Assembly: GCA_036258735.1 (NCBI GenBank)
Contig: DATADC010000008.1
Coordinates: forward strand, 1 to 63,373
Source: Candidatus Limnocylindria bacterium
Lineage (GTDB): Bacteria > Chloroflexota > Limnocylindria > QHBO01
Length of the DNA: 63,373 bases
Direction of reading: 5' to 3'
Part shown: positions 24,724 to 50,018 of the stretch, in pieces
How positions within the stretch are numbered: position 1 is the first letter of the stretch
Layout: each line of letters starts with the position of its first letter
The notes under the pieces: generated by a model
What the model saw: only the letters and a program-made list of their open reading frames with translations
What the model was told of the DNA's origin: nothing
The model's database searches: none
Made by a program: the position numbers and the translations under genes

Positions 24724-25238
24724 CAGTGGTTCACCACCATGGTGTGCTCGGAGTGGATGGCCATCTCGCCGAAGCCGAGCACCGACATCAGCGTGAGTGA
24801 GACGGAGCTGCTGACTCCGACGGTGACCGGCGTGCCCCGCACGTTGGTCTCTTCGGTATTCGTGTCGCCCGTGCATTCGTCCCCGTAGCACACCGTCACC
24901 ACGATCGGACGCCCGCCCGCGATGGCGTAGTGCTTCGCCTGCTCGCGGATGCTGTCCTTGGAGGGCGAGGGATGCGGGCAGTCGTCGCTGGCCGCGGGGA
25001 TGACGGTCTCGGGGCCGGGCGGTCCAACGGGGCAGGCGTTATCGGGCGAGCCGCCGTGCACGATCGCGTAGCGAGCCGCCTCTCGGGCGGCATTGGTGAC
25101 GGCGCTGGTCGCCCAGACCACCCGTCCGAAGTCGAGGATGCCGACCACGATCAGCAGGAAGACCGGCAGGATGATGGCGAACTCGACCAGCGACTGGCCG
25201 CGATGCCCGGGACGCCGAAGGCGGTTCCTCATCGTCAT
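24723..25238 (-). CDS. TadE-family protein
   Basis: GQSLVEFAIILPVFLLIVVGILDFGRVVWATSAVTNAAREAARYA is the TadE-like N-terminal domain. Confidence 0.7.
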   Translation of the reverse strand: MTMRNRLRRPGHRGQSLVEFAIILPVFLLIVVGILDFGRVVWATSAVTNAAREAARYAIVHGGSPDNACPVGPPGPETVIPAASDDCPHPSPSKDSIREQAKHYAIAGGRPIVVTVCYGDECTGDTNTEETNVRGTPVTVGVSSSVSLTLMSVLGFGEMAIHSEHTMVVNH

Positions 25239-25714
25239 CGCCCCTGGAGGACCTGGAATGACTCGGTGGCGCTGAGCTGCCAGCTACCGCGATCCAGCCA
25301 CGGCCACGGCATGAGCATCCGGAACGGCAGCCGAGCCTGGAGGGTGACCGAGCCCAGCGGATAGAAGGCAGTGGCGCCGGGGGCGGTCGAGCTGCGCGAG
25401 TACGAGAGGACCTCGACCTCGGGTTGGTCGCACGCCTCGGGCGTGTCCCCCTGCTCGTAGCCGATGACGCTCTCCAGCTCGCCGCAGATGTGCGAGCGGG
25501 CCTCCGTCAGCGCGCTGTCCTCGTCGGTGGCGTTGCCCGCCGCGTATTCGGCGGCGGTTCGCGTGGCCGACTCGAGAGCGATCTGGGCGGCGTAGGCGCG
25601 ACCGAAGTCGACGATGATGCCGGCGAAGGCGAGCAGCATCGGCATGACGATGGCGAGCTCGACGAGTGCCTGGCCCCGTGGCGCGCTGCGGAATGGGTTG
25701 GCCGCCCGGTTCAT
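25235..25714 (-). CDS. TadE-family protein
   Basis: GQALVELAIVMPMLLAFAGIIVDFGRAYAAQIALESATRTAAEYA is TadE-like. AGGAG RBS upstream; stop overlaps the next start (ATGA). Confidence 0.7.
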   Translation of the reverse strand: MNRAANPFRSAPRGQALVELAIVMPMLLAFAGIIVDFGRAYAAQIALESATRTAAEYAAGNATDEDSALTEARSHICGELESVIGYEQGDTPEACDQPEVEVLSYSRSSTAPGATAFYPLGSVTLQARLPFRMLMPWPWLDRGSWQLSATESFQVLQGR

Positions 25715-35734: not shown

Positions 35735-36778
35735 TCAGGACGCGGCTGGTCCTGCCAGGGTCGCCTCCAGGTTGGCCATCGGCACCGGCGCCAGGCGCCC
35801 GTCCTCGAACCGGACCAGGCCCATCCGGGTCGGGATGCCCGATGGCGCCGCGTGCAGCTCGTCAAGGGCGGCGACAAGCACGCCGGCGCGGCCCTGGAAC
35901 GGACGCCGGTGCGCGACCACCCGCTCGCCGACGCGCGGGAGCGTGCGTCGCGCGGGTGGCGTCGACGCGCCATGCACGAAGAGCAGGCCGTCGGCTCCGA
36001 ACAGGCTGGCGGTGCGCCCGGCGTGCGACCGAAGCCACGCGAACCGCTGGGGGTCGATGCCGACCTTGCCGAAGCCCTCAAGCAGCAGGACGCCGAACGA
36101 CCCGGTCAGGCCCCCGATCTCGCGCCGGCGCTGCTGGATGGCCTCGAAGTCGCGCAGCTCCTTGTCGAGCACGCCGCCGAGGACGATGCCGGCCACGCCC
36201 ATGGCCCTCGCCCGGGTCAGCGTCTCGGCGGACGCGCGCGAGCCGCCCACCACGATGCGCCCAGTGGCTCCGACGTCGATGGCGCCGGCGCGCAGCTCCT
36301 CCTCGGCAGCATGGACGGCGACCACCAGCTCGCCGTGTACGGCGTCGCCGGTGCCGCCCACGCCCCGCAGCACGACGCCGGGGACCTCGAGCACGATGGC
36401 TCCGGGCTCGACAGCCTGCACCTTCCCGTGGACGTGGCCGATGACCGGCTCTTCCTCGCCCAGCGGCGCGACCAGGGCGCTGCCGTCCGCGGGCGAGACC
36501 GTGAGCAGCATTCCGGTGAAGGGCATCGCCACCTCGCGCCCGTGCGCGTCCCGCGCGAGCGCCTCCCCGGCATCCAGGAGCGTACCGGGCCGCGAACGCA
36601 GGACCGCCAGCAGCTGTCCGGGTGGCCGGCCGAGCAGGTCGGTGACTCGAACGTGCCGCGCCGGCCCGGCGCGGCGTCGAATGGCCAGCACCTGCTCCGG
36701 ACGCACCTCCTCGCCGACCTCCACCACGGGCGTCGCGCCGCGCGGGATGCGAACCCGGTGGAGCGTGGCTCCGCTCAT
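35735..36778 (-). CDS. conserved-looking hypothetical soluble protein (347 aa), last gene of the 8-gene cassette
   Basis: GC3-biased ORF whose ATG overlaps the upstream stop (ATGA 36775-36778). Beta-rich N-terminus (VRIPRGATPVVEVGEEVRPEQVLAI), a Gly-rich central segment (RIVVGGSRASAETLTRARAMGVAGIVLGGV) and a small C-terminal barrel-like segment. No family recognised. Confidence 0.7.
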   Translation of the reverse strand: MSGATLHRVRIPRGATPVVEVGEEVRPEQVLAIRRRAGPARHVRVTDLLGRPPGQLLAVLRSRPGTLLDAGEALARDAHGREVAMPFTGMLLTVSPADGSALVAPLGEEEPVIGHVHGKVQAVEPGAIVLEVPGVVLRGVGGTGDAVHGELVVAVHAAEEELRAGAIDVGATGRIVVGGSRASAETLTRARAMGVAGIVLGGVLDKELRDFEAIQQRRREIGGLTGSFGVLLLEGFGKVGIDPQRFAWLRSHAGRTASLFGADGLLFVHGASTPPARRTLPRVGERVVAHRRPFQGRAGVLVAALDELHAAPSGIPTRMGLVRFEDGRLAPVPMANLEATLAGPAAS

Positions 36779-38472
36779 CGCTCCCCCACCAGCGATGGAT
36801 CCAGCGTCATGACGGCTGGCTCACGTACCACGGCGTCGCGCCAGGCGGCCAGCACGGCGCGCCGGTCGTCCGGCCGGCGTGGTACCGGCAGCGGCACGCC
36901 ACGGGCGTCGAGCACGAGGCCCACCGCGCCGCCCATCGCCATCGCGGTCATGCGCCGGGCGCGACGCGCGCCGCCCAGCGACGCGCCCTGGAGCAGTTCG
37001 ATCTCCAGCTCCGCCTCGTGACCACGAGCCAGCGGCACGACCTGGAGCTGCCCGGTCCGCACGTCCAGCGGCCCGATTGGCGGCCACCCTGTGCGGTGAA
37101 CCGTGACCCGCATCACGACCTGCCCCGGGCGGCCGCCGCGAGTCACGACTGACGTCCCGAGCGGGACCAGCAGGTCGTCACGCAGGACGCCCATGCCCTC
37201 CGCGATCTCGCTGTCGTCCAGGGCGCCGAGCGGGGGGAGCACGCCCGAGCTGTCGAGGGCCAGCTGGGTCACCCCCACCGGCCGCACGCCGTCCAGCAGC
37301 AGCTGCACCGCGTGCGAGGGCCGCGGCGCGGCAGCCAGGCTGCGGCCGGCGCCGATCAGCAGGTCGATGCCCTCCTCCATCTCGCCGCGCTCCGAGTCGG
37401 CCGCGGCCGCCAGCTGGTGTCGTACGGCGGCCTGCATGATGGCCAGCTCGTCCTCCGTCTGGGGCAGCGTCGCCGGTCGAGCGTGCAGGTTCTGGAGGCC
37501 GTCGGCCACTGCCATCTCGTCGATGAGCATCGGGATCCAGCGCGCCAGCCGACCCGGGCCACCGCCCGCCAGCCGGGCACCGGCCAGCCCTCCGGCGGCG
37601 AAGACACGGCTCTCGGCGCTTCCGGACTCGTCGGCCTGCGCCCACGTCAGGTAGCGCGCGCCGACATCCACGCCCACGATGCGTCGCCCCGCGCTCGCCG
37701 CCAGCTGCGACACCGAGCGCCGAAAGGCGACCGGCGTGTGCTGCCGGGTGCCGGCGGGCTCGACGACCCGCTGGAGCAGGTCCTCCAGCGCGTGACGCAG
37801 TGGCACCGGGTTCTCGCGGGTGGGTGCCGGCCGCGGGTTGTCGACCACCGTCACCGCTCCCTGCTCGAACAGCAGCGCGACGTCATCGGCCAGGGACGCA
37901 GCACCGGCCCAGATGACTGGAGCGTCGGAACTGCCGCGGGCAGCGGCGACGAGGCTCGCCATCTCCAGCGCCTGGTCGGCGCCGGCCGCGTCGAAGCCGC
38001 CGCACAGCAGCCAGGCGTCGACCTCGGCGTCCTGGAGGGCGGCGACGCGATCGACCAGCGAGCGCCCGTCGTCGGCGGTGGCACTCACCTCGACGGTCCA
38101 GCCTGCCGACTCGGCGGCGCGGCGGGCCGACGCCCCTGACAGCTCGGCGGACACGGCCCCCAGCGCCAGGCGCCCGGCCCGGCGCGGCGTGTGGCACGAG
38201 ATGCGCGGCGCGACCGCGAGGAGTTCGGGCAGGCGATCAGCCACGCGCCGGTCGACGACGCCCACCAGCCGCGCGACGAGCGAGGACCGCAGCTCCGCCT
38301 CTCCCCAGGCGGTCGGCTGCGCGACGTGGGCTGCCAGGCGCCACCTGCCGCGTGACCTGGCCACGACCGCCGCCTTGGTCCACGCCGATCCCGCGTCGAC
38401 CAGCAGCGTCATCTCGGCGGCCACGCGCGGCCGCTCCTCGACGGCATCCCGCGCTACCGGCCGCTCGTTCAC
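36775..38472 (-). CDS. GlmL/MutL-family (glutamate mutase L-like) actin/Hsp70-fold putative ATPase
   Basis: N-terminal phosphate-1-like motif MTLLVDAGSAWTKAAVV (compare GlmL iDfGSTfTK), a second nucleotide-fold repeat (RIVGVDVGARY) and about 565 aa length. GTG 38472 overlaps the upstream stop (GTGA); ATG 38411 is an alternative. Confidence 0.7.
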   Translation of the reverse strand: MNERPVARDAVEERPRVAAEMTLLVDAGSAWTKAAVVARSRGRWRLAAHVAQPTAWGEAELRSSLVARLVGVVDRRVADRLPELLAVAPRISCHTPRRAGRLALGAVSAELSGASARRAAESAGWTVEVSATADDGRSLVDRVAALQDAEVDAWLLCGGFDAAGADQALEMASLVAAARGSSDAPVIWAGAASLADDVALLFEQGAVTVVDNPRPAPTRENPVPLRHALEDLLQRVVEPAGTRQHTPVAFRRSVSQLAASAGRRIVGVDVGARYLTWAQADESGSAESRVFAAGGLAGARLAGGGPGRLARWIPMLIDEMAVADGLQNLHARPATLPQTEDELAIMQAAVRHQLAAAADSERGEMEEGIDLLIGAGRSLAAAPRPSHAVQLLLDGVRPVGVTQLALDSSGVLPPLGALDDSEIAEGMGVLRDDLLVPLGTSVVTRGGRPGQVVMRVTVHRTGWPPIGPLDVRTGQLQVVPLARGHEAELEIELLQGASLGGARRARRMTAMAMGGAVGLVLDARGVPLPVPRRPDDRRAVLAAWRDAVVREPAVMTLDPSLVGER

Positions 38473-39113
38473 CGTACGATCCCGAGCCAGTCGCCAAGCA
38501 GGAACCGCACCCGATCGAGGAGCAGGGCGAGGCGGCTCACCAGCAGGAACCCCAGCCAGCCGCCGATGCCGCCGAGCAGCAGCCACTGGCCGGCGCCGGC
38601 GGCTGCCGCGGCGACGCGCCCGCGCCGCACGCCGTGCAGGAAGGTGAACAGCACCAGGCCGGTGATGGCCAGCCCGAGCAGCGCGCTGGCGAGGTCGGCA
38701 CCGGCCGCAGACGCCGGCAGCACGGTGGCACCCAGCTGCGGCAGCAGGGTTCCGACCACGGCTCCGCCAAGAGCGAACGCCGCGGTGGCCGCCACCAGGA
38801 GCGATACGGGCACCGACGCAGCGAGCGGGGGCAGCCAGCGCCCGGCCACCAGCAGCGCCACCAGCGCCAGGCCAAGCCACGACAGCGGCACGCCGCCAGG
38901 GTCGGCCGCGAGCGGCAGCAACAGCCGCGGCACCAGCACCTCGCGGACGGAGACCACGACGAGGTAGCCTGTCGCCAGCCCGGCGAGCAGGTACTGGGCC
39001 AGGCGGAAGATGCGGGCGCCGCCCGCGAAGTAGGACCATACGCCCACCGTGACCGCGGCCGCGACCCAGGTCGCCGCCGTGCCGGCCGCGTCGGTCCCGG
39101 CAAAGCCGTTCAT
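38469..39113 (-). CDS. polytopic membrane protein (about 6 TM), cassette gene 6
   Basis: Alternating hydrophobic helices throughout (WVAAAVTVGVWSYF, LAQYLLAGLATGYLVVV, LGLALVALLVAG, LLVAATAAFALGGAVVG, LLGLAITGLVLFTFL, WLLLGGIGGWLGFLLV). ATGA overlap with the upstream gene. Confidence 0.7.
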   Translation of the reverse strand: MNGFAGTDAAGTAATWVAAAVTVGVWSYFAGGARIFRLAQYLLAGLATGYLVVVSVREVLVPRLLLPLAADPGGVPLSWLGLALVALLVAGRWLPPLAASVPVSLLVAATAAFALGGAVVGTLLPQLGATVLPASAAGADLASALLGLAITGLVLFTFLHGVRRGRVAAAAAGAGQWLLLGGIGGWLGFLLVSRLALLLDRVRFLLGDWLGIVR

Positions 39114-39940
39114 GCCTGCTCGTCCGGCTCACGGCGACCAGGCGTCGCATCCGGCCGGCGCACGACGTACAGGGCGCGCCCGATCACGCCCAGCGCGACG
39201 AGCATGCCTGCCAGCATGGGGAGCGCGGCCGGCTGGGCCTCGCCATCGCCCACGCCGCTCGCGAAGGTGGCGCCGTCGCGCACCGTGGCCAGCAGCCCGG
39301 CCAGCTGCCCCGTGCGCAGGTAGGGAGCCACCTCCGGCTGGAGGAAGGTAGGCACGACGGCCAGCACCGGCATGTCGGGAACCCGGGTGACAACCTGCTC
39401 GACCCAGGTTCGCGGGCCGATGTCGAGGCCGCCAACCACGAGCGTCATGTCGAACGCCGCGATCCCGGCGGCCGCATCCGCGAAGGCCGCGGGGAACGAG
39501 GCCCCGGCAGCCCCGAACTGCGTCACCGACAGGACCAGGCCCGCCTCGGCGCCGGCCACGAAGCCGAGGTCCAGCACGCGCCCGGCGTCCGCACCGCCGG
39601 CGATCAGGCGTTCGACCTCCGCCGCCGCCGCGGCTCGGCCTTCCGGGGTGTAGCTCACGAAGGCGATCCGCGCGCCGCGCTCCAGCAGCTCGGAGAGCGC
39701 GGCACGAACCGTGGCCCGGATCTCCGGGTACGTGCCGAGGTCGGGATCCATGCCGACCAGGACCATGGCGTCGTCGGGGAGGCCGTCGAGCGCGGCCGTG
39801 ACCTCGGTGGCGCGCGCCGGATCCGGGTTGGCGACCTGCAGCCAGCTACCCGCCGCGTCGCTCAGCAGCAGCGCAGCCGCCACCACCGCCAGCAATGCGG
39901 CAGGCCACAGCCACGGCCGGGCTGCGACACGCTCAATCAT
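39110..39940 (-). CDS. membrane-anchored protein with N- and C-terminal TM helices and a large intervening domain, cassette gene 5
   Basis: N-terminal TM PWLWPAALLAVVAAALLL, an alpha/beta-like about 220-aa domain, and C-terminal TM ALPMLAGMLVALGVIGRALYVV. ATG 39940 overlaps the upstream stop by 8 nt. Confidence 0.7.
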   Translation of the reverse strand: MIERVAARPWLWPAALLAVVAAALLLSDAAGSWLQVANPDPARATEVTAALDGLPDDAMVLVGMDPDLGTYPEIRATVRAALSELLERGARIAFVSYTPEGRAAAAAEVERLIAGGADAGRVLDLGFVAGAEAGLVLSVTQFGAAGASFPAAFADAAAGIAAFDMTLVVGGLDIGPRTWVEQVVTRVPDMPVLAVVPTFLQPEVAPYLRTGQLAGLLATVRDGATFASGVGDGEAQPAALPMLAGMLVALGVIGRALYVVRRPDATPGRREPDEQA

Positions 39941-40550
39941 CGGCGCTGCCGACGGCCAGCAGGACGCGTGCGGCATATGTCGCGGCGACGATTGCGACCC
40001 CGATCAGGAGCCCACGAAAGACGGCACCCACCGGGACGGCAAGCGCCCAGGCCGATGTCCCCGCCAGCCACGCCCCCAGCGTCCCGCCCAGGGGCAGCAG
40101 CAGGATGACGGCTGCGGCCGCTGCCAGCAGCATGACGACCATCTGGCGTGAGCGAAGCGCCATGCCGCGCTGCATGGCGGCCAGCAGGAAGACGAAGAGC
40201 ATGGCGAACAGCGCGGCAATGAGGGGTGCCAGGAGGGCCGCCACGAGCCAGCGCACGGCGGGGTCGGCCGAACCGGCCGATCCGGGGTAGAAGCCCGCCA
40301 GCAGCATGGCGGCCATGCCGGCCAGCAGCACACCCGACCCCAGCCGGTCACCTCCGGTTCGTGCCAGCTGCCCGCCGTGGTGGACCAGGAGCGTGGCCCC
40401 GCCCAGGACAGCCGCTCCGGCGGCCAGGACAACCACGAGCTCCAGCACGCCCTGGGCGACGCCCGCCACCAGCGGGTTGATGACGACGAAGTTGACGAGC
40501 AGCAGCAGCCCAATCAGGACCACGATCGTGGCCGGAAGGGACCTGCGCAC
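39933..40550 (-). CDS. polytopic membrane protein, cassette gene 4
   Basis: About 6 hydrophobic helices. GTG 40550 lies 1 nt after the upstream stop with a G-rich SD-like run; alternative TTG 40592 would overlap the upstream gene by 41 nt. Confidence 0.65.
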   Translation of the reverse strand: MRRSLPATIVVLIGLLLLVNFVVINPLVAGVAQGVLELVVVLAAGAAVLGGATLLVHHGGQLARTGGDRLGSGVLLAGMAAMLLAGFYPGSAGSADPAVRWLVAALLAPLIAALFAMLFVFLLAAMQRGMALRSRQMVVMLLAAAAAVILLLPLGGTLGAWLAGTSAWALAVPVGAVFRGLLIGVAIVAATYAARVLLAVGSADD

Positions 40551-40551
40551 G

Positions 40552-41391
40552 TCAGGCCCCCGCCAGGACCGTGGTGACGTCCACTCCTGCAACCCAGGCC
40601 AGCAGTGAGCCGAGGGCGATCACCGCCAGCGCCACCAGCAGCAGGCGGTTGGCGGCGAGCACGCCGGTTCGATCCGCCCGGCCGCGGATGTCGCTGGTCG
40701 CCTGGAAGAGCTCGGGACCGATCATGGTCCCCTCGCCGGTCAGCAGCACCGACGACGCCTGTGACGGCGCCGCGGTGCCGAAGCTGGACGAGGCCGCGCC
40801 CCGGCTGGCGCCGTACAGCAGAAGCAGCCCCTCCTCGGCCAGCCCTCCGGCCGCGAAGCTGGCTGCCGGCGACCCGCCGCGCGCCAGGGCGGTCGCGGCG
40901 GCCGTGGCTCGACCCTCGCCGAGGTACTCGGCCGACGACCGCGAGCGCCGCTCGAGCGTCTCGGTGCGCCGGTGCGCGTCGTCGAGGACGGCACGAGCCA
41001 TGCCCGCCGCCACGGCGTCGTTGGACGTCACTCGCAGCGGAACGCCGCTGCGGGCAGCGGCGCGGGCCACGACGCTCAGGACGCCGATCCCGGCCAGGGT
41101 CTGGAGGCGATCCAGCGACGAGGTGGCGCGCGCCACGCCGGCCGTGCCCAGCGAGAAGGCGGCCACGCCTCCGGACTCGGCCGCCAGCGCCATGGCCCGC
41201 CCAACCGATGCCAACCGGCCGAGATCGCGCACCGTCCAGCGGGTCGACGGCCTGGCCACCAGCGAAAGGATCACCAGCATCACCGTGAGCAGCGTCACCG
41301 TGGCGATCGGCCCCAGGCGCAGGGAGGAGGCTCCCACCTGCTCGCCGATGAACGCGACCAGGCCCCCGAGCAGGCTGCCCAGGTCGGGCAT
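40552..41391 (-). CDS. membrane protein with Ala/Gly/Ser-rich central domain flanked by TM helices, cassette gene 3
   Basis: TM helices near the N-terminus (PIATVTLLTVMLVILSLVA) and C-terminus (LLLVALAVIALGSLLAWVAGV). ATG shares 1 nt with the upstream stop (TGATG). Confidence 0.7.
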   Translation of the reverse strand: MPDLGSLLGGLVAFIGEQVGASSLRLGPIATVTLLTVMLVILSLVARPSTRWTVRDLGRLASVGRAMALAAESGGVAAFSLGTAGVARATSSLDRLQTLAGIGVLSVVARAAARSGVPLRVTSNDAVAAGMARAVLDDAHRRTETLERRSRSSAEYLGEGRATAAATALARGGSPAASFAAGGLAEEGLLLLYGASRGAASSSFGTAAPSQASSVLLTGEGTMIGPELFQATSDIRGRADRTGVLAANRLLLVALAVIALGSLLAWVAGVDVTTVLAGA

Positions 41392-41636
41392 CAGCCGCCG
41401 GCCCCCGCGCGCAGGCGTGCCAGCAGGCGGTCGTACTCGGCCTCGTCGAGCAGCGTGCGCTCCAGCGCCTCGGCGCCCTCACGCCACAAGGGCCGTGTCA
41501 CCGGCAGGAGGAACGTGGCTCCCACGGACAGCAGCGGGCGGAGCGGCCGGTGCGCCTCGAGCAGGAGCAGCGCCGGGGCCGCCAGTCCGCGGCGCTCGAG
41601 CTCGCCGACGGCCCGCTCCAGCGGGGAATCGCTCAC
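41391..41636 (-). CDS. small hypothetical protein (81 aa), cassette gene 2
   Basis: GTG 41636 overlaps the macro-domain gene stop (GTGA). Helical, Leu/Arg/Glu-rich with one hydrophobic stretch (LLSVGATFLLPV). Confidence 0.6.
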   Translation of the reverse strand: MSDSPLERAVGELERRGLAAPALLLLEAHRPLRPLLSVGATFLLPVTRPLWREGAEALERTLLDEAEYDRLLARLRAGAGG

Positions 41637-42160
41637 GCGGTGGCCCGCATCGCCGCCAGTGCGGATCCGTAGGCGACCGCCTCCGCCGGACCGCTCACCG
41701 CAACGACCAGCGAGGCCGGCAGCGGCGCGCCGAACGTCGCTCGATCGGTGAGCACGCGGGCAAGCACACTGGCGGCGGCGGCCGGGTCGAACACCCCGCG
41801 TTCGACGCCGACGGGTGCCACCGCCAGGCGTGCGAGCCCCAGGCGAGCGGCGAGCTCGAGGCCGGCGTCCAGGGCGCGTCGCAGACGCGCGGCGTCGGGC
41901 TGCAGGTCGTGGCCCACGCCCACCACGTGGATCACGTACGGGGCCGCCAGCTCTCCGCCGCCGGTGACGACCGCTGTGCCCGCCTCCACGGGTCCCTGCT
42001 GGACGGCGTCCCGCTCGACCGCCTCCCCGGCGCGCAGCCGCAGGGCGCGCGCCACGGGCGCGGTCATGAACAGGCTCTCGTTGGCCGGAACCAGGATCGC
42101 GTCGACCTCAAGCTCGGCGATCTCCCCCTGCCACACGTCGATCTCGATCGGGACTGCCAT
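41633..42160 (-). CDS. divergent macro-domain protein, cassette gene 1
   Basis: IEIDVWQGEIAELEVDAILVPANESL...YVIHVVGVG...LARLAVAPVGVERGVF follows the macro-domain layout (qGDIt...vDAIVNAAN...hvvgP...iafP.IStGvyG). The Gly-rich GGGVDGAI loop is replaced by FMTAPVARAL. Confidence 0.65.
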   Translation of the reverse strand: MAVPIEIDVWQGEIAELEVDAILVPANESLFMTAPVARALRLRAGEAVERDAVQQGPVEAGTAVVTGGGELAAPYVIHVVGVGHDLQPDAARLRRALDAGLELAARLGLARLAVAPVGVERGVFDPAAAASVLARVLTDRATFGAPLPASLVVAVSGPAEAVAYGSALAAMRATA

Positions 42161-42200: not shown

Positions 42201-43349
42201 CTATGCGCCGTGGTGCAGGCGCGGTAGCCGTCGCCGGAGGGCGGTGGTGACTTCGTAGTTGATGGTGCGACGCTCGGCGGCCACCTCGTCGGCCGAGATC
42301 TGGGCCCCCTGCTGCTCGCCGATCAGGACGAACTCGTCGGCGTAGGTTACATCATCGATCTGGCCCACATCGACGGTGATGCCGTCCATGCTGACCGTGC
42401 CCACGATCGGGGCGTGGCGCCCTCGCACCAGCACCGTGCCGTTGTTGGTATGCAGCCGGGGCCACCCGTCGCCGTAACCGATGCCGAGGGTTGCGATCCG
42501 GGTCGCGCGCTCGGCGCGGAAGCGCAGCCCGTAGCTGATGGCCGCGCCGGCCGGCAGGTCGAAGATGCGCAGCGGCAGCGCCTTGAGGCTGAGGACGGGC
42601 CGCAGGCCGTGGTCGCGTTCGGCCGCCCAGGCGGGCGCCAGGCCGTAGAGGCCGATGCCCGGGCGCACGGCATCGGCGTACGACCCTGCACCGGCCAGGA
42701 TGCCTCCGGTGGCCGCCAGGTGCACGAGCCCTGGGTCGACCCCTGCCGAGCGCATGGCGTCCAGCGTCTGTGCCAGGCGCAGCTGCTGCACCTCGGTGTA
42801 GGCGTCGTCCTCGCCGGCCGAGGCCAGGTGGCTGAACGTGCCGGCCAGCCGCAGGCTTCGGCTGCGCGCGATCCGGGCGCCTAGCGAGAGTGCCTCCTCC
42901 GGCAGCGCCCCCTGGCGGCCGAGGCCGGTGTCGACCTTGAGGTGCACCGGCACGCGCCGGCCCGCGAGCGCGGCAGCGGCCTCCAGCAGGCCGATGGCCC
43001 GCTCGTCGTAGACGACCGCCTCTAGCTCGCGCTCGACGACCGCGGCCGCCTCCGGCGGACCGATGCCCCACAGCACGAGGATCGGCAGCTCGATCCCGCC
43101 GTCGCGCAGCTCGAGTGCCTCGCCCGCGGTCGCGACCGCCAGCCGCTCCACGCCGGCGCGCGCCAGCGTGCGCGAGACCTCCAGCGCGCCGTGTCCGTAG
43201 GCGTCCGCCTTGACCACCGCGACGACCTGCTTGTCGGCGCCCGCCAGCCCACGCAGCTGCGCCAGGTTGGCTCGCAGGGCAGCGTGGTCGACCTCGAGCC
43301 AGGCCCGATGCGGGCTGCGCGGCGTCTCGGCGTGGGGCATGCCGCTCAC
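42201..43349 (-). CDS. alr: alanine racemase
   Basis: PLP-Lys motif VVAVVKADAYGHGALEVSR and C-terminal VSMDGITVDV. GTG 43349 overlaps the nnrD stop (GTGA); ATG 43340 is an alternative. Confidence 0.9.
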   Translation of the reverse strand: MSGMPHAETPRSPHRAWLEVDHAALRANLAQLRGLAGADKQVVAVVKADAYGHGALEVSRTLARAGVERLAVATAGEALELRDGGIELPILVLWGIGPPEAAAVVERELEAVVYDERAIGLLEAAAALAGRRVPVHLKVDTGLGRQGALPEEALSLGARIARSRSLRLAGTFSHLASAGEDDAYTEVQQLRLAQTLDAMRSAGVDPGLVHLAATGGILAGAGSYADAVRPGIGLYGLAPAWAAERDHGLRPVLSLKALPLRIFDLPAGAAISYGLRFRAERATRIATLGIGYGDGWPRLHTNNGTVLVRGRHAPIVGTVSMDGITVDVGQIDDVTYADEFVLIGEQQGAQISADEVAAERRTINYEVTTALRRRLPRLHHGA

Positions 43350-46492: not shown

Positions 46493-47824
46493 TCAGTTCA
46501 GGCGCGCCCTGGCCAGCTGGTCGAGCTCCTGGGCGATTCCGCCGATCTCGTCGAGGTCCTCGCCCTCGACCATGATCCTGATCTTGGGCTCCGTGCCGGA
46601 CGGGCGGACCAGGATCCGCCCGCGCGAGCCGAGACGCTCCTCGGCCCTCGCCACCGCCGCCCCGAACTCCGGGTCGACCTGCCACGCGTCCTTGTGGCGG
46701 ACAGCAGAGTTTATCACCACCTGCGGCAGCCTCGGGATCCGGGCGGCGAGCTCAGACAGCGGCGGGCTCCCTGCCGCGCGGACCGCCTTGACCAGCTCGA
46801 TGGCCGTCAGCATCCCGTCACCCGTGGTCGAGCGATCGCGAAAGATGACGTGTCCCGACTGCTCCCCGCCGAGGACCGCGTCGACGCGCTCCATCGCCTC
46901 GAGCACGTGCCGGTCGCCGACCGGGGTGCGCAGCAGTAGGCCGCCGGCGGCCTCGATCGCGCGCTGCAGGCCGCCGTTGCTCATGACGGTCGCGACCAGC
47001 ACGCCGTTTCGCAGCGTGCCGGCGGCGAGGCGCTGCAGGGCGCAGATGCCCATCACCGCGTCGCCGTCCACCACGCCGCCGCGCTCGTCGACGGCAATAA
47101 GCCTGTCCGCATCGCCGTCGAACGCGAACCCGAGGTCCAGGCCTTCCTCCGCCACGGTTCGCGCGAGCGTCTGGGGATGGGTGGAGCCGCAGTCCAGGTT
47201 GATGTTGGCGCCATCGGGCCGGTCAAACAGGACGGTGGCCTCGGCGCCGAGCTCGCCGAAGAGCGCCGGCGCGATCGCCGACGCGGACCCGTTGGCGCAG
47301 TCCAGCCCGATGCGCAGGCCGCGCAGGTCCTCTCCGGCGACCTGCACCAGCCGGTGCCGATATCCCTCCACCGCCGAGGCGTCGGGCACGACGCGGCCCA
47401 GCTCCTCGTTCGGCGGCGCCGGCAGAGCATGGGGGCCGAGGATCAGCCGCTCCAGCTCCTGCTCCACCGTATCGTCGACCTTGCGCCCGCCCGAGACGAC
47501 CTTCAGCCCGTTGTCCGCGGCGGGATTGTGCGACGCCGAGACCATGATCCCCGCGGCGTGCTGGCCGCTGGCCGCGACGTGGATCAGGCAAGGGGTGGTG
47601 ACCGTGCCGAGCAGCACGGCATCGGTGCCCACGGCGGCGAGGCCCGCCGCAACGGCCGAGACCAGCATGTCGCCGGACCGACGCGTGTCCTGGCCGACGA
47701 CCACGCTGCGGCCGCGGCCATCGAGCAAGTGCCCCACCGCTCGGCCCAGGTCGAAGGCCAGGCTGGGGGTCAGGTCAGCGTTGGCGACGCCACGGATGCC
47801 GTCCGTCCCAAAGAGGCGTCCCAT
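46493..47824 (-). CDS. glmM: phosphoglucosamine mutase
   Basis: LFGTDGIRGVAN and active-site SASHNPAADNG. ATG 47824 shares 1 nt with the cdaR stop (TTG 47827 is the ORF-track start). Confidence 0.9.
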   Translation of the reverse strand: MGRLFGTDGIRGVANADLTPSLAFDLGRAVGHLLDGRGRSVVVGQDTRRSGDMLVSAVAAGLAAVGTDAVLLGTVTTPCLIHVAASGQHAAGIMVSASHNPAADNGLKVVSGGRKVDDTVEQELERLILGPHALPAPPNEELGRVVPDASAVEGYRHRLVQVAGEDLRGLRIGLDCANGSASAIAPALFGELGAEATVLFDRPDGANINLDCGSTHPQTLARTVAEEGLDLGFAFDGDADRLIAVDERGGVVDGDAVMGICALQRLAAGTLRNGVLVATVMSNGGLQRAIEAAGGLLLRTPVGDRHVLEAMERVDAVLGGEQSGHVIFRDRSTTGDGMLTAIELVKAVRAAGSPPLSELAARIPRLPQVVINSAVRHKDAWQVDPEFGAAVARAEERLGSRGRILVRPSGTEPKIRIMVEGEDLDEIGGIAQELDQLARARLN

Positions 47825-49053
47825 CAACCGGGGCTGGGCGACGGGGTGGCCGGCTCGCGGAGCGTGACCGGCACGTTCGCGGGCGAGACGGCGAGAAGCG
47901 TCACATCGTCCGGCAGTGCAAGCGTGGGGGCCACCTGGTGCTGGCCAACTTCCAGCCCGGAGACCTCGAGCACCGGCGTCACGTCGCCGGCATCCATCTC
48001 GGCGAGGAGGGCGGCTGGTCCCTCCACCACCACGGAGACCTGCTCCTGCTGCGGAAGGCAGGCGAAGCCCTCCGGCGCACCCTCACACACGATGCCGACC
48101 ACGAACGTCCGGGTGGCGACCGCCGCTGCGACCTCCACGGTCACGGTCAGCGACCGGTTGCCGGCGCCGACGCGCGTGCCATCGGGCAACGCCAGCTGGG
48201 CCTCGAGGGTTGCCGACTGGCTCAGCGCCGTGATGCTCAACGGCTGCGTCCGCACCTCGTCAATCGGCCCCAGGACGTCGGGCAGGCCGAAGATGGTCAC
48301 CACCGCCGGCTCCGCGCTCACGGACGTGATCTCGAAGCCCTCCGCCGGCGAGCCGTCCAGCTGGGGACGGATCGGGACCGTCTTCGAGGTCTCCACCGCC
48401 CGCACGTCGATCTCGACCAGCACGGTTGCCGGCTCCAGCTCCACCGAACTCACCTCGGCGCCGTCCACGTCCACCGGCACGAGGTCCACCTGGCGCTCCA
48501 CGTCGATGGCCGACTCGAAGATCTGGACGCGGGCCACGGCGCGTTCGACGCGACCGAGCTGGCTCTCGGGGCCGACCGCCACGACCGTTTGGTCCGACAG
48601 CCGCGGCGTGCCGATGGCGAGCCCGTCCGGCACGGCCCCGCGCTCGACCACGACCGGGACCTCCCGCTGCCCGAGGCGGTCCAGCTCCACGGCCACGGTG
48701 GTCGGCGAGTAGCTGATCACCTCAACGCCCGGTGTCAGGGCAGTGACCTCGACCTCCAGCGCCTGCGGCTCGGGGGCCAGGTCCATGTCGTAATCGCGCA
48801 GGTCCACCGTTGCCGCGAAGGACTCGACGGTGACCCGCGAGACGGCGTCCGCAGATAGCCGATAGTGGACGTCCACCGTCCCCAGCTGCTGCGTCAGCGG
48901 GTACGCCGCTGCGGGGAGGCCCACGGCCTCGACCGGGACGCCGGGGAAGGTCTCCTCGCTGAACGAGCCGGAATAGACGAACCCGGTGTACAGCACCGTC
49001 GCCAGCGCCAGCGCACCGAGCTTCAGGTGCCAATTGCGGACCAGCCAGCTCAC
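47824..49053 (-). CDS. cdaR: YbbR-domain protein (CdaR-type regulator of diadenylate cyclase)
   Basis: N-terminal TM WHLKLGALALATVLY followed by repeated YbbR-like beta modules. Sits between cdaA and glmM as in the conserved cdaA-cdaR-glmM operon. GTGA overlap with cdaA. Confidence 0.75.
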   Translation of the reverse strand: MSWLVRNWHLKLGALALATVLYTGFVYSGSFSEETFPGVPVEAVGLPAAAYPLTQQLGTVDVHYRLSADAVSRVTVESFAATVDLRDYDMDLAPEPQALEVEVTALTPGVEVISYSPTTVAVELDRLGQREVPVVVERGAVPDGLAIGTPRLSDQTVVAVGPESQLGRVERAVARVQIFESAIDVERQVDLVPVDVDGAEVSSVELEPATVLVEIDVRAVETSKTVPIRPQLDGSPAEGFEITSVSAEPAVVTIFGLPDVLGPIDEVRTQPLSITALSQSATLEAQLALPDGTRVGAGNRSLTVTVEVAAAVATRTFVVGIVCEGAPEGFACLPQQEQVSVVVEGPAALLAEMDAGDVTPVLEVSGLEVGQHQVAPTLALPDDVTLLAVSPANVPVTLREPATPSPSPG

Positions 49054-50018
49054 CGTGGCCGGCCCTCGCGGCCGACGGGTCCGAGCTCGGGGCGCGGGGC
49101 GCGGGGCGGCGGCGCGCCGTCGACCACGCGCTCGTCAGGGTCGATCGGCAGGCGCTGCGCGGGCTCGCGCCCCACTTGCCAGCGCCCCTCGATTGTGCGC
49201 GTCAGGAACGGCATGCGCTGGCGCGGCGCCTGGGGCCGGATCAGGTTGAAGATCCGCCGCCGCAGCTGTTCCTCGGTGAGGTTGCGCTCGATCCGCCCAC
49301 GGAGGACGAGGCTGATGGACCCGGTCTCCTCGCTGATGACGATCACGATCGCATCGGTCTGCTCGCTGATCCCGATCGCCGCGCGGTGACGCGTCCCGTA
49401 CCGCTCGCTGTCGAGCACGTTCTGCGATAGCGGGAGCAGCACGCCAGCCGCCAGGATGCGCTCGCCGGAGATGATCACCGCACCGTCGTGCAGGGCGGTG
49501 CCGTGGTAGAAGATGGTGGCCAGCAGCTCGGCCCGCAGGTCGGCGTGGACCTGGACGCCGGACTCGGCGGCGAGATCGTACAGGCCCGTCTCGCGCTCCA
49601 GCACGATCAGGGCACCGTGACGCGAGCCGGAGATCAGGCGCGCCGCGCGGCTGACCTCGCGCGCCACCCGCTCCGCGGCCGAGATGTCGCTCGAGACGAA
49701 GAAGCGGTTGAAGGACCCGAACCGCCCGATCTGCTCGAGCGCGCGACGCAATTCGGGCTGGAAGACCACCACGATCGCGAACAGCCCGACCACGGCGCCC
49801 GCCTGCAGCAGCGTGGAGAGCAGGCGCAGGTCGAAGGCTTCGGCGGCCAGATAGAACAGGTAGACGAAGGTCAGGCCGATGACGATGCGGACCGCCCGAG
49901 TGCCGCGCAGCAGGATGAAGATCCAGTACACGACGACCGCCACCAGGAGGATGTCGACCAGCGTCGTCCAGCTACCGCGAAGGTAGGTGTCAAGGAATTC
50001 GCGGATCGCGTCGAGCAC
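49050..50018 (-). CDS. cdaA: membrane-bound diadenylate cyclase (DisA_N/DAC domain)
   Basis: Three N-terminal TMs, then the DAC domain (HGALIVLERETGL...GTRHRAAIGISEQTDAIVIVISEETGSISL). About 60-aa Arg/Pro-rich C-terminal extension. Confidence 0.85.
   Translation of the reverse strand: MLDAIREFLDTYLRGSWTTLVDILLVAVVVYWIFILLRGTRAVRIVIGLTFVYLFYLAAEAFDLRLLSTLLQAGAVVGLFAIVVVFQPELRRALEQIGRFGSFNRFFVSSDISAAERVAREVSRAARLISGSRHGALIVLERETGLYDLAAESGVQVHADLRAELLATIFYHGTALHDGAVIISGERILAAGVLLPLSQNVLDSERYGTRHRAAIGISEQTDAIVIVISEETGSISLVLRGRIERNLTEEQLRRRIFNLIRPQAPRQRMPFLTRTIEGRWQVGREPAQRLPIDPDERVVDGAPPPRAPRPELGPVGREGRPR

Follow-up and report, generated by a model that had tools for sequence, protein, structure and literature searches.

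A seven-gene set between alr and tsaE in Candidatus Limnocylindria, encoding four membrane proteins and a MutL/GlmL-type protein, recurs across bacterial phyla

Nucleotide-driven remodelling of a partner complex is the mode of action proposed for GlmL-type accessory proteins and Hsp70-fold reactivases. To our knowledge, the relatives in the PF13941 family with a proposed role are accessory to soluble B12 mutases, not to membrane complexes; we also know of no transporter class with an actin/Hsp70-fold ATPase as motor, nor of polymerisation in the hydantoinase/GlmL branch. In the Rnf and Nqr complexes, the subunits that bear the barrel-sandwich domain, RnfC and NqrA, are peripheral and sit on a membrane core, and NqrD, NqrE and NqrC have sizes and topologies akin to three membrane proteins (g4, g6 and g5) of the cassette described here. 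A fourth, g3, belongs to DUF6754, a family without known function on which a literature search gave no paper.

The cassette lies in a window of 63,373 nucleotides, the whole stretch of DNA analysed, and is listed below with its flanks, the genes being numbered from alr towards tsaE.

42201-43349, minus strand: upstream flank alr, alanine racemase (NCBIfam TIGR00492, 4.2e-97)
41633..42160, minus strand: g1, divergent macro-domain protein, 175 aa (Pfam PF01661, 4.7e-15)
41391..41636, minus strand: g2, soluble protein of a small conserved family, 81 aa (phmmer, neighbour clustering)
40552..41391, minus strand: g3, DUF6754 protein, 279 aa (Pfam PF20539, 1.7e-18)
39933..40550, minus strand: g4, polytopic membrane protein, 205 aa, ~6 TM helices (homologues behind DUF6754)
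39110..39940, minus strand: g5, bitopic-hairpin membrane protein, 276 aa (family alignment, topology)
38469..39113, minus strand: g6, polytopic membrane protein, 214 aa, 5-6 TM helices (homologues, fourth position of the module)
36775..38472, minus strand: g7, PF13941 (MutL/GlmL-type) actin/Hsp70-fold protein, 565 aa (Pfam MutL, 2.7e-26)
35735..36778, minus strand: g8, soluble partner of the ATPase, 347 aa (AF2, Foldseek, family matches)
35212-~35709, minus strand: downstream flank tsaE (NCBIfam TIGR00150, 7.3e-26)

The eight ORFs were all recovered at the coordinates of the first-pass annotation, which had described them as start/stop-coupled, and every junction was present: GTGA overlaps for g1/g2 (41633-41636) and g6/g7 (38469-38472), ATGA overlaps for g5/g6 (39110-39113) and g7/g8 (36775-36778), TGATG at 41391 for g2/g3, a 1-nt spacer followed by the GTG start of g4 at 40550 for g3/g4, and ATGATTGA at 39933-39940 for g4/g5. 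In alignments, the starts of g4 (GTG 40550) and g5 (ATG 39940) matched the N-termini of distant homologues; the start codon of g7 is uncertain by ~16 codons. According to the junction sequence, tsaE starts ~25 nt past the g8 stop codon, and tsaB, rimI and tsaD lie beyond it. Upstream of the cassette are a cdaA-cdaR-glmM block and, two genes from the macro gene, nnrD (ADP-dependent NAD(P)HX dehydratase gene). The gene content was also as described, with Pfam matches to the macro domain, DUF6754 and MutL at the E-values listed, and topology prediction gave four membrane proteins, two polytopic and two with a TM-domain-TM layout.

Related loci were colinear around the cassette in 82 of 82 cases, with the complete g2 to g8 set in 17 of them, and tsaE followed g8 in all 71 loci that reach past g8. 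The dN/dS values of the eight ORFs (0.19-0.53) were comparable to those of alr and tsaE, and purifying selection acts on all eight. The tight co-directional cassette consists of real genes; as had been proposed, their products are a GlmL/MutL-like ATPase, its soluble partners and four proteins of the membrane. The idea of a block inserted between alr and tsaE did not survive: composition is native, GC content (0.73-0.76) is that of the flanks and the alr-tsaE position is fixed across the class, which argues against a recent insertion. Nor is the genome actinobacterial, as its gene order had suggested; the named homologues are from the class Candidatus Limnocylindria (Chloroflexota), to which the host belongs, and the cdaA-cdaR-glmM block stands upstream. 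The cassette has long been part of this uncultured lineage of Chloroflexota.

DUF6754 was found in at least 596 species genomes, and the seven families g2 to g8 co-localise in FCB-group phyla, Planctomycetota and others. Across 80 loci from other phyla, DUF6754, g4, g5 and g6 (69, 64, 62 and 59 loci, respectively) occurred in that order on one strand, and MutL, g8 and g2 (26, 24 and 17 loci) were directly adjacent; no further family recurred in more than 10 of these loci. Tight gene spacing is conserved across phyla (gaps of 9, -1 and -4 nt in locus L012), and similar spacing is found in the Limnocylindria window. The arrangement is modular, one MutL-g8 pair often being accompanied by one to three tandem membrane modules. 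Among 37 long loci, however, only 14 have an ATPase module less than 10 kb from a membrane module, and the two may therefore not always act together. The outer face is variable, with FN3 or PQQ/BamB-like propellers at the DUF6754 N-terminus and, in some g4 paralogues, an FG-GAP propeller inserted in the outside TM3-TM4 loop, while conservation is highest in the cytoplasmic domain of DUF6754. It is highly probable that g2 to g8 form one seven-gene unit. The expected conservation of an eight-gene block was not observed, only the seven-gene core, without the macro gene, being kept across phyla. The gene set spans hundreds of bacterial species and is so far uncharacterised; as the first-pass annotation had supposed, PADLOC, Pfam, NCBIfam, PDB sequence, fold and literature searches linked it to none of the described systems for transport, secretion, division or defence. 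The annotation had suggested a stoichiometric membrane complex, and the strict co-occurrence is most naturally read as a membrane complex of several subunits.

Among the membrane subunits, g3 begins with a short stretch outside the cell, followed by a first TM helix, an alpha/beta domain of ~200 aa in the cytoplasm and a second TM helix; topology and charge place a basic DUF6754 domain between the two helices. It clears the PF20539 gathering score (67 vs 27) as a divergent member without ectodomain, with ~25% identity to canonical proteins, which themselves match at ~1e-110. The invariant residues E72, G74, E187, G205-T206, Q211 and E227 are retained, whereas several near-invariant motifs, including GRATEMG and CDYTLIGEE, are gone. 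For g3, AF2 yielded a poor model (pLDDT 57.5) that matched no known fold significantly. Homologues of g4 (E down to 6e-20) lie directly behind DUF6754 in 64 loci, those of g5 hold the third position of the module in 62, and those of g6 (E down to 1e-19) the fourth in 59. g5 is oriented N-in, with a TM helix, a ~215-aa extracytoplasmic alpha/beta domain, a second TM helix and a tail; its termini are basic and the outside domain acidic. By hhalign, g6 is unrelated to g4. No relative was found in Pfam, NCBIfam or PDB for g4, in Pfam or PDB for g5, or in PDB for g6, and no informative fold match or solved structure was found for any membrane subunit. In the alignments, g3, g4 and g6 of the Limnocylindria cassette depart from their canonical counterparts at many conserved residues, and the local version may therefore do something different.

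The soluble module is likewise recognisable. g2, which matched no Pfam or NCBIfam family, was similar in phmmer searches to ORFs of 114-185 aa (most 114-141 aa) adjoining MutL or DUF6754 genes in other phyla; its family (family 6 of the neighbour clustering) accompanies the ATPase module in 17 loci and carries the motif L(T/A)APA(I/L)xxLE..(K/R)PL. The Pfam MutL match of g7 spans the N-terminal half only; canonical relatives match PF13941 over their full length (3.8e-123, all 450 model positions) and have intact Hsp70-like phosphate-1, phosphate-2 and adenosine motifs. In alignment with these, g7 keeps the phosphate-1 motif D-x-G-S-x-x-T-K, but DIGGATTD of phosphate-2 has become D(V/L)GARYxx, SSAGGG has become PRRAGR and ~28 residues are deleted. 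Compared with GlmL, a C-terminal extension adds ~120-150 residues. D(V/L)GARY replaces DIGGATTD in all seven aligned Limnocylindria sequences; the nucleotide site is partly remodelled in this lineage and, in g7 itself, looks impaired. The g8 gene always stands immediately behind the MutL gene or at one gene's remove from it. Its product, modelled by AF2 (pLDDT 71.7), begins with a barrel-sandwich-hybrid domain and ends in a KOW/SH3-like barrel, and the alpha/beta region between the two is conserved. In Foldseek, the only matches, to NusG domain 2, KOW and the hybrid motif of RNAP beta', fell on the beta-barrel sub-domains. The g8 family weakly matched Biotin_lipoyl (17/25), RnfC_N (11/25) and NQRA_N (7/25), its N-terminal domain being of the barrel-sandwich type seen in RnfC and NqrA.

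From this co-occurrence of seven families, with their gene order, topologies, motif states and variable ectodomains, we infer physical assembly, docking, energy coupling and transport. DUF6754, g4, g5 and g6 would most likely form a four-subunit complex in the cytoplasmic membrane, in which DUF6754 exposes a conserved alpha/beta domain on the cytoplasmic side and g5 exposes a second one on the outer side. The soluble module (g2, the g7 ATPase and g8) would most likely dock on the cytoplasmic face, where nucleotide binding or hydrolysis could drive or reset conformational changes of the membrane complex. That the seven genes, as the Limnocylindria version of a conserved, phylum-spanning two-module system, encode an ATPase/chaperone-coupled membrane machine is the likeliest of the readings considered, although we regard it as evenly balanced. 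Transport or translocation, with specificity residing on the variable outer face, is a more tentative reading of what such a machine may do. In Limnocylindria, with ectodomains absent and phosphate-2 rewritten, the soluble module is probably altered and possibly non-hydrolytic.

The first-pass annotation counted the macro gene as part of an eight-gene unit and took it to imply an ADP-ribose or NAD-derived ligand, and a complex that senses or processes such a ligand, for instance in signalling or anti-phage defence, would be suggested by the GTGA overlap with g2, the retention of the gene in 10 related Limnocylindria loci (dN/dS 0.20-0.31) and the proximity of nnrD. However, the gene is missing at 5 of 14 Limnocylindria loci covering the alr/g2 junction and adjoins the system in none of the 80 loci from other phyla (with a single non-adjacent match), which leaves seven genes as the functional unit; a gene absent from so many loci offers no general clue to an ADP-ribose or NAD ligand of the system. 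The loops contacting ADP-ribose are both degenerate in g1, the glycine-rich loop after the motif Asn (N-x6-GGG) now reading T/S-A/G-P/A and the second phosphate loop (GTGxxG) G(T/V)(E/D)(R/H)G, and the motif Asn itself varies among relatives (N, S or T). PADLOC gave no match of note, and a site fixed across the class inside a housekeeping operon does not resemble a defence island. We consider an integral macro protein very unlikely and, for the entire system, largely refuted. The macro gene is a lineage-specific accessory neighbour outside the conserved core, and would be a facultative neighbour that shares one long housekeeping operon with the system without belonging to its subunits.

A second possibility is an envelope or cytoskeletal scaffold, in which actin-fold assemblies on the membrane, tethered to the envelope, would serve cell-wall growth or shape in the manner of MreB-MreC-MreD. 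One operon does combine an actin/Hsp70-fold protein with a bitopic protein bearing an outside domain and small polytopic proteins, a canonical member weakly matches the archaeal MreB-like_C model (0.0011), the Limnocylindria system has genes for cell-wall precursors (glmM, glmS and alr) as neighbours, and FN3 and propeller ectodomains would suit envelope contacts. Yet other phyla lack this cell-wall context, which is confined to Limnocylindria, sequence similarity to MreB, MreC or MreD is absent, the hydantoinase/GlmL branch is one for which polymerisation is not established, and tandem amplification of the membrane module suits specificity variants better, so that we hold a scaffold to be improbable. 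Still less credible is a complex on the Rnf or Na+-NQR plan that translocates ions or electrons, although the cassette recalls that plan, in which a subunit with an outside domain and a pair of six-helix subunits of ~200 aa are joined by a peripheral subunit of barrel-sandwich type: g4 and g6 (~205-215 aa, 5-6 TM helices) and g5 resemble NqrD, NqrE and NqrC, and the RnfC_N and NQRA_N matches of the g8 family point the same way. Against this, g4 and g6 are not paralogues, no subunit or homologue matched an Rnf-Nqr, FMN_bind, Fe-S or flavin-binding family, conserved cysteine clusters are not visible in the g4, g5 and g6 alignments, and Rnf and Nqr have no actin-fold ATPase. Finally, g7 could be no more than a GlmL-type protein that assists or reactivates a B12-dependent mutase whose genes lie elsewhere, its adjacency to the membrane genes being without functional meaning; its PF13941 membership and the name 'glutamate mutase L' given to homologues in public sources would fit. 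This has the smallest probability of the readings considered, as g7 falls far below the GlmL equivalog and subfamily cut-offs (43 vs 475; 53 vs 204), as do canonical members (219 vs 475; 160 vs 204), neither the annotated flanks nor the 80 loci from other phyla yielded a mutase gene, and adjacency to DUF6754 modules recurs across many phyla in several gene orders.

Compared with known systems, g1 has a clear macro fold by sequence, its closest solved relative being Thermus thermophilus TTHA0132 (PDB 2dx6, 2.4e-13), but departs from MacroD/AF1521-type domains in both replaced loops and the variable motif Asn. g3 shares the TM-domain-TM layout and an above-gathering score with DUF6754 (PF20539), differing as a divergent, ectodomain-less member that has lost motifs. 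With MreB-MreC-MreD the cassette has in common an actin-fold protein encoded with bitopic and polytopic membrane proteins, though from another branch of the fold, with no sequence relationship and with tandem-amplified membrane modules. The resemblance to Rnf and Na+-NQR lies in the barrel-sandwich-hybrid N-terminus of a peripheral subunit and in small six-helix and outside-domain subunits; the membrane subunits are non-homologous, cofactor motifs are absent and an ATPase is present. A further comparison is with the GlmL/MutL accessory protein of coenzyme-B12 glutamate mutase (PF13941; NF040745, TIGR01319) and, by extension, the Hsp70-fold reactivases DdrA and EutA: g7 shares the family, the ASKHA fold and the proposed nucleotide-driven remodelling of a partner complex, and differs in scores below every NCBIfam GlmL cut-off, membrane partners in place of nearby mutase genes, the rewritten phosphate-2 motif, the deletion and the C-terminal extension. 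Although the cassette has no P-loop ATPase and no homology to ABC or ECF components, it resembles ECF/ABC-type modular importers in logic, with a shared cytoplasmic energising module and tandem, interchangeable membrane modules.

The cassette on the minus strand between alr and tsaE consists of eight ORFs (g1 to g8), and each of the junctions listed in the first-pass annotation was found in the sequence, as were the flanking genes that it named.

35735–42160, minus strand: eight ORFs, g1 to g8, of 175, 81, 279, 205, 276, 214, 565 and 347 codons, respectively
41633–41636, minus strand: g1/g2 junction, GTGA
41391, minus strand: g2/g3 junction, TGATG
40550, minus strand: GTG start of g4, preceded by a one-base spacer
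39933–39940, minus strand: g4/g5 junction, ATGATTGA
39110–39113, minus strand: g5/g6 junction, ATGA
38469–38472, minus strand: g6/g7 junction, GTGA
36775–36778, minus strand: g7/g8 junction, ATGA
Upstream of the cassette: glmM, glmS, acpS, NAD(P)HX dehydratase and alr
Downstream of the cassette: tsaE, tsaB, rimI, tsaD, rsmA and ispE

Of the less obvious starts, those of g4 (GTG) and g5 (ATG) are supported by homologues in other phyla, whose N-termini align with them; the start codon of g7 carries an uncertainty of approximately 16 codons. The G+C content of the window is approximately 75% and high-GC DNA yields long spurious ORFs; selection on the ORFs was therefore examined. Compared with three related contigs, all eight gave dN/dS values of 0.19–0.53, within the range of alr and tsaE, figures that are rough since dS is close to saturation. 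The cassette is real and well conserved. The frame of g7 is open upstream across all of g6, giving a 791-codon ORF (36775–39150, minus strand). This long frame is an artefact of high GC content and might deceive gene callers; homologues set the length of g7 at approximately 550–565 residues. Between 31 and 48 kb of the window, no promoter-like site was detected, and the single terminator-like site (inside g4, with 1.9 expected by chance) was uninformative. No riboswitch was found when the region preceding the system was searched with Rfam, both in the window and for seven long loci.

Elsewhere in the window, two TadE-like pilus-assembly genes (25235–25714 and 24723–25238) are immediately preceded by a c-di-GMP-I riboswitch (RF01051; 25748–25830, minus strand; 48.7 bits, gathering score 35). 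This arrangement suggests that c-di-GMP controls a Tad-type pilus in this Chloroflexota genome.

The surrounding gene order had been taken as actinobacterial, a reading that did not survive the homology searches: the homologues of g7 and g8 with a named source come from 'Candidatus Limnocylindria' or 'Limnocylindrales', a class of Chloroflexota, and two further genes precede glmM and glmS.

49050–50018, minus strand: cdaA, diadenylate cyclase
47824–49053, minus strand: cdaR, YbbR domain

The order cdaA-cdaR-glmM is a Firmicutes/Chloroflexota pattern, typical of Firmicutes rather than actinobacterial, and its presence here argues against an actinobacterial origin. Two NCBI protein records labelled 'candidate division Zixibacteria' (P0087 and P0169) share 70–73% identity with g7 and g8 of Limnocylindria, far above the approximately 27% identity of genuine Zixibacteria homologues, and their bins are probably mislabelled or contaminated.

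The cassette had also been described as inserted between alr and tsaE. Its GC content (0.73–0.76), however, is the same as that of its flanks, and in two long contigs with 61–64% protein identity the cassette occupies the same place in a glmM-to-ispE gene order identical to that of the window. Together with 80 further loci from a metagenome scan using the g8 alignment, these make up 82 related loci, all of which are colinear with the window; the sole apparent exception was a cross-match of tsaD on tsaB. The genes g2 to g8 are complete in 17 of the 82, and tsaE follows g8 within 250 nt in all 71 loci that reach far enough. Each of the eight ORFs has been accounted for, without any mobility gene among them. 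Since the colinearity holds in every related locus and tsaE follows g8 wherever it could be seen, the block is a fixed feature of the class Limnocylindria and not a recent insertion; a recent genomic island was rejected on its native GC, the lack of patchiness among the 82 loci and the lack of a mobility gene.

Profile searches of the eight proteins (Pfam and NCBIfam) gave three assignments only: Macro for g1, DUF6754 for g3 and, limited to the N-terminal half of the protein, PF13941 ('MutL', the GlmL family) for g7. When 1.84 billion representative proteins were scanned in full with g3, 329 relatives emerged, most of them approximately 25–30% identical, either as stand-alone proteins or as the C-terminal 250 residues of longer ones. 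With canonical DUF6754 sequences as queries, a scan of species-representative genomes (one genome per species) confirmed relatives at 596 of 600 matched stretches among the matches listed. The system is thus common, with DUF6754 confirmed in at least 596 species-representative genomes, and the family profile matched at least 8,000 clusters (8,000 of 8,000 scored candidates), named matches coming from Poribacteria, Latescibacteria and GN15 and being mostly called 'fibronectin type III domain-containing protein'. The genome scan gave 80 loci from other phyla (Zixibacteria, Fermentibacteria/Aegiribacteria, WOR-3, Cloacimonadota, Ignavibacteria, Gemmatimonadota, Eisenbacteria, Planctomycetota, 'Deltaproteobacteria' and others); overall, among the carriers are FCB-group phyla, Planctomycetota, Poribacteria, Myxococcota-like MAGs and one whole Chloroflexota class.

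The eight window proteins were used as queries against ORFs called in these 80 loci. Approximately 80–110 ORFs matched each of g3, g4, g5 and g6, lying on one strand and always in the order DUF6754-g4-g5-g6 (D-4-5-6). Approximately 25 ORFs each matched g7 (E down to 1e-43) and g8 (E down to 1e-32), directly beside D-4-5-6 modules, and g2 proved to belong to a family of approximately 115–165-residue proteins adjoining MutL or DUF6754 genes. An all-against-all clustering of the 1,245 ORFs agreed with this picture.

Gene families recurring among the 80 loci from other phyla
DUF6754 family: 69 of 80 loci
g4 family: 64 of 80 loci
g5 family: 62 of 80 loci
g6 family: 59 of 80 loci
MutL (g7) family: 26 of 80 loci
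g8 family: 24 of 80 loci
g2 family: 17 of 80 loci
Each remaining family: no more than 10 of 80 loci

With M for MutL, the orders found in other phyla were 2-M-8-D-4-5-6, D-4-5-6-2-M-8, M-8-(D-4-5-6)x3 and a divergent 8/M pair beside (D-4-5-6)x3, and the order in the window is 2-D-4-5-6-M-8. The window copy has its D-4-5-6 genes (40552–41391, 39933–40550, 39110–39940 and 38469–39113) on one strand, in the family order and with an intergenic spacing as tight as in other phyla, and it also carries g7, g8 and g2. The soluble set is single-copy, whereas the membrane set often occurs in two or three tandem copies, as in the FCB-group loci L028, L050, L054, L057, L061, L065, L071 and others, where two or three D-4-5-6 modules accompany a single MutL-g8 pair. 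The ATPase module lies less than 10 kb from a membrane module in only 14 of 37 long loci, D-4-5-6 stands alone in one Poribacteria-like genome, and no Rosetta-stone fusions were found among the seven families. We consider it very probable that the seven families form one seven-gene system.

The count of eight genes has to be reduced by the macro gene. It is present in 9 of the 14 Limnocylindria loci that cover the alr/g2 junction (a tenth locus starts inside one) and absent from the other five (L106, L107, L119, L120 and L126), in which g2 starts approximately 90–140 nt past alr and leaves no room for it; among the 80 loci of other phyla, g1 matched one gene, non-adjacent to the system. Since the gene is missing from these five junctions, the conserved unit is one of seven genes, fixed between alr and tsaE in Limnocylindria, and the macro gene is an optional neighbour. 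The significance attached to it in the first-pass annotation, the handling of ADP-ribose or an NAD-derived ligand, is further weakened by its sequence. The g1 protein matches PF01661 with 56 bits (gathering threshold 22) and has TTHA0132 as its closest solved relative, but its first loop reads PANESLFMTAPVA in place of N-x6-G-G-G-(V/L/I) and its second GVERGVF in place of G-(T/S)-G-x-x-G. In every relative of g1, replacements affect both the second phosphate loop and the glycine-rich loop that follows the motif Asn, and the Asn position itself is N, S or T.

Some other genes accompany the system in a minority of loci. A TonB-dependent receptor and ExbB/ExbD/TonB adjoin it in approximately 10 loci of the Fermentibacteria and Ignavibacteria types (e.g. 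L012:13247–16114 and downstream, L028:786–1499, L015:18102–18764); this set is the only recurrent functional neighbour and occurs in too few loci to be defining. As functional clues, these genes were set aside together with GcvP, PPDK and acyl-CoA dehydrogenase, each being found in at most 10 of the 80 loci. Three small families without a convincing Pfam family were also seen: one of approximately 152 residues, always directly upstream of g2/MutL (8 loci, e.g. L015:5703–6173; sub-threshold MFS_1 match only, E 0.00096), one of approximately 114 residues that follows the system closely, at one or two genes' distance from a core gene (10 loci, e.g. L063:8311–8655), and one of approximately 253 residues between MutL and g8 (5 loci, e.g. 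L068:4846–5616).

Among the membrane subunits, g3 matches PF20539 (DUF6754) with 67.2 bits against a gathering threshold of 27, while longer canonical proteins match at approximately 1e-110, and g3 is therefore a divergent member of the family. Its two TM helices enclose approximately 200 residues rich in basic residues, and the positive-inside rule places the conserved DUF6754 domain in the cytoplasm and the variable parts outside. The cytoplasmic domain is the most conserved element, and the parts facing outwards vary. Canonical members additionally possess an acidic ectodomain at the N-terminus (FN3 or PQQ/BamB-like propeller), together with a signal peptide; g3 lacks the whole ectodomain and several near-invariant motifs, and retains the family invariants E72, G74, E187, G205-T206, Q211 and E227. 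An AF2 model of g3 built on a 52-sequence alignment was discarded owing to its low pLDDT (57.5) and its merely generic Rossmann-like matches (E ≥ 0.018). In g5, an acidic stretch of approximately 215 residues lies between two TM helices, with a short basic N-terminus before the first and a basic tail after the second, a layout that places the acidic domain outside the cytoplasm; among 29 g5-family members, no consistent weak Pfam match was found. Both g4 (approximately six helices) and g6 (five to six) are polytopic, and profile-profile comparisons showed g4 to be unrelated to g6 and DUF6754 to be unrelated to g5.

Variation in the membrane proteins extends to fused domains. A PQQ/BamB-like propeller was observed at the N-terminus of DUF6754 (L010:8309–10768), and an S49 (SppA/NfeD-like) peptidase is fused after the last helix of one solitary DUF6754 protein (L024:9494–11878). 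Three g4 paralogues (L054:14494–16269, L053_15 and L078:10802–12586) contain an insert of approximately 390 residues in the loop between helices 3 and 4, which in the L054 paralogue (L054_14) is an FG-GAP propeller according to Pfam; the L078 insert had no Pfam match.

The ATPase of the window, g7, scores 92.8 bits against PF13941 (threshold 27) and is well matched only at model positions 2–252, whereas its canonical relatives match over the full length (3.8e-123). Compared with GlmL, these relatives carry approximately 120–150 additional C-terminal residues, and they display Hsp70-like motifs: DCGSTTTK (phosphate 1), DIGGATTD (phosphate 2) and GSGGVLSHAP (adenosine). The phosphate-1 motif D-x-G-(S/T)-x-x-(S/T)-K is kept in the window protein as DAGSAWTK, of which D26, G28, S29, T32 and K33 are invariant in the family alignment (A8). 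The phosphate-2 motif D-x-G-G-x-T-(T/F)-D, on the other hand, is replaced by DVGARYLT. All seven aligned Limnocylindria g7 proteins have D(V/L)GARY where canonical members have DIGGATTD, as well as PRRAGR in place of SSAGGG, and approximately 28 residues are missing. Because the replacement motif is itself conserved, the nucleotide site appears altered, and possibly non-hydrolytic, rather than decayed. Relative to the canonical form, the window copy as a whole is derived and stripped down.

In an AF2 model of g8 (pLDDT 71.7), beta-barrels at the N-terminus and a small barrel at the C-terminus flank an alpha/beta region that was modelled poorly. This central region is where the family alignment shows the strongest conservation. 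Only the barrels found Foldseek matches, namely NusG domain 2, KOW domains and the RNA polymerase beta' hybrid motif, with low TM-scores. The window protein itself gave only a match to RPOC_hybrid (E 0.55), while 25 family members weakly matched Biotin_lipoyl (17/25), RnfC_N (11/25) and NQRA_N (7/25), from which the N-terminal domain is probably a barrel-sandwich hybrid.

The statement that the cassette resembles no described system held throughout the searches. Pfam and NCBIfam contained no family for g2, g4, g5, g6 or g8, either with the window proteins or with better-conserved canonical homologues; searches of PDB chains by sequence and profile (g7 and g8; the DUF6754, g4, g5, g6 and g8 families) gave nothing significant; and in the literature library searched, no paper named DUF6754 or PF13941, and nothing relevant was found on GlmL/'glutamate mutase L' or Limnocylindria. 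An anti-phage defence system was rejected, the PADLOC-DB 2.0 models yielding one weak match to g5 (E 0.025, 11 bits) and none to the other seven window proteins. A plain GlmL serving a distant mutase would account for the PF13941 match and is extremely improbable: g7 scores 43 against a cut-off of 475 (NF040745) and 53 against 204 (TIGR01319), the canonical relatives likewise fall short (219 and 160), and the B12-dependent mutase neighbours expected of GlmL are absent from the cassette, the annotated flanks and the 80 loci, so that GlmL proper was ruled out.

The putative barrel-sandwich hybrid of g8 hints at a redox or ion complex of the Rnf/Nqr kind, since domains of this type occur on the peripheral subunits of both Rnf and Na+-NQR. 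However, no Rnf-Nqr, FMN or Fe-S Pfam match came from the window proteins, their canonical homologues or the 29 g5-family members, no cofactor motifs were found and the membrane subunits lack homology; Rnf/Nqr itself was ruled out on these grounds, and a complex like it is given very little credence. The same low standing is accorded to the eight-gene, ADP-ribose-linked unit first envisaged. An MreBCD-like envelope scaffold appears unlikely: beyond a sub-threshold match of one canonical ATPase to MreB-like_C (E 0.0011), no Pfam match to MreB, MreC or MreD was obtained, and MreBCD was ruled out on homology. As every known family considered fails in at least one tested defining feature, and the Pfam entries DUF6754 and PF13941 give no function for the proteins concerned, the system is rated as lying outside the known kinds, a rating that rests on absent matches and not on a demonstrated new mechanism.

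The earlier proposal of a membrane complex is upheld as probable, the four membrane families co-occurring with the ATPase module. The four membrane proteins probably assemble as one complex, at whose cytoplasmic face the ATPase, g8 and g2 would dock, so that nucleotide turnover could drive or reset it; its job would be transport or translocation, with the specificity set by the outer face. Counting against this mechanism are the occurrence of the modules within 10 kb of each other in a minority of long loci and of D-4-5-6 alone in the Poribacteria-like genome, the impaired look of the local ATPase site and the fact that, to our knowledge, no known transporter class uses the actin/Hsp70 fold as a motor. 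Transport is a tentative reading in our judgement, while for the seven-gene system and the transport mechanism taken as a package we see the case as evenly balanced.

The system is a widespread 'conserved unknown'. Chloroflexota that are abundant in soil and freshwater carry it throughout an entire class, Limnocylindria. Neither Pfam nor NCBIfam has a model for five of the seven protein families, none of the members has a solved structure, and the database names 'glutamate mutase L' (g7 homologues) and 'fibronectin type III domain-containing protein' (DUF6754 proteins) should be regarded as misleading here. With membership, order, topology and variable parts delimited, a block of 'hypothetical proteins' has been made testable. 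If an actin/Hsp70-fold ATPase does energise the membrane complex, this would be a new coupling principle. It is conceivable, if doubtful, that the system represents a new class of cytoplasmic-membrane machine across many phyla, in which a GlmL-type ATPase powers or gates a four-subunit complex and one motor serves several tandem modules with differing ectodomains, the Limnocylindria form being a stripped-down derivative with a rewritten nucleotide site. In its logic the system resembles those that combine a shared energising module with exchangeable membrane modules, whereas its proposed motor, of the GlmL-type actin/Hsp70 fold, is unlike ABC, P-type, AAA+ or rotary ATPases.
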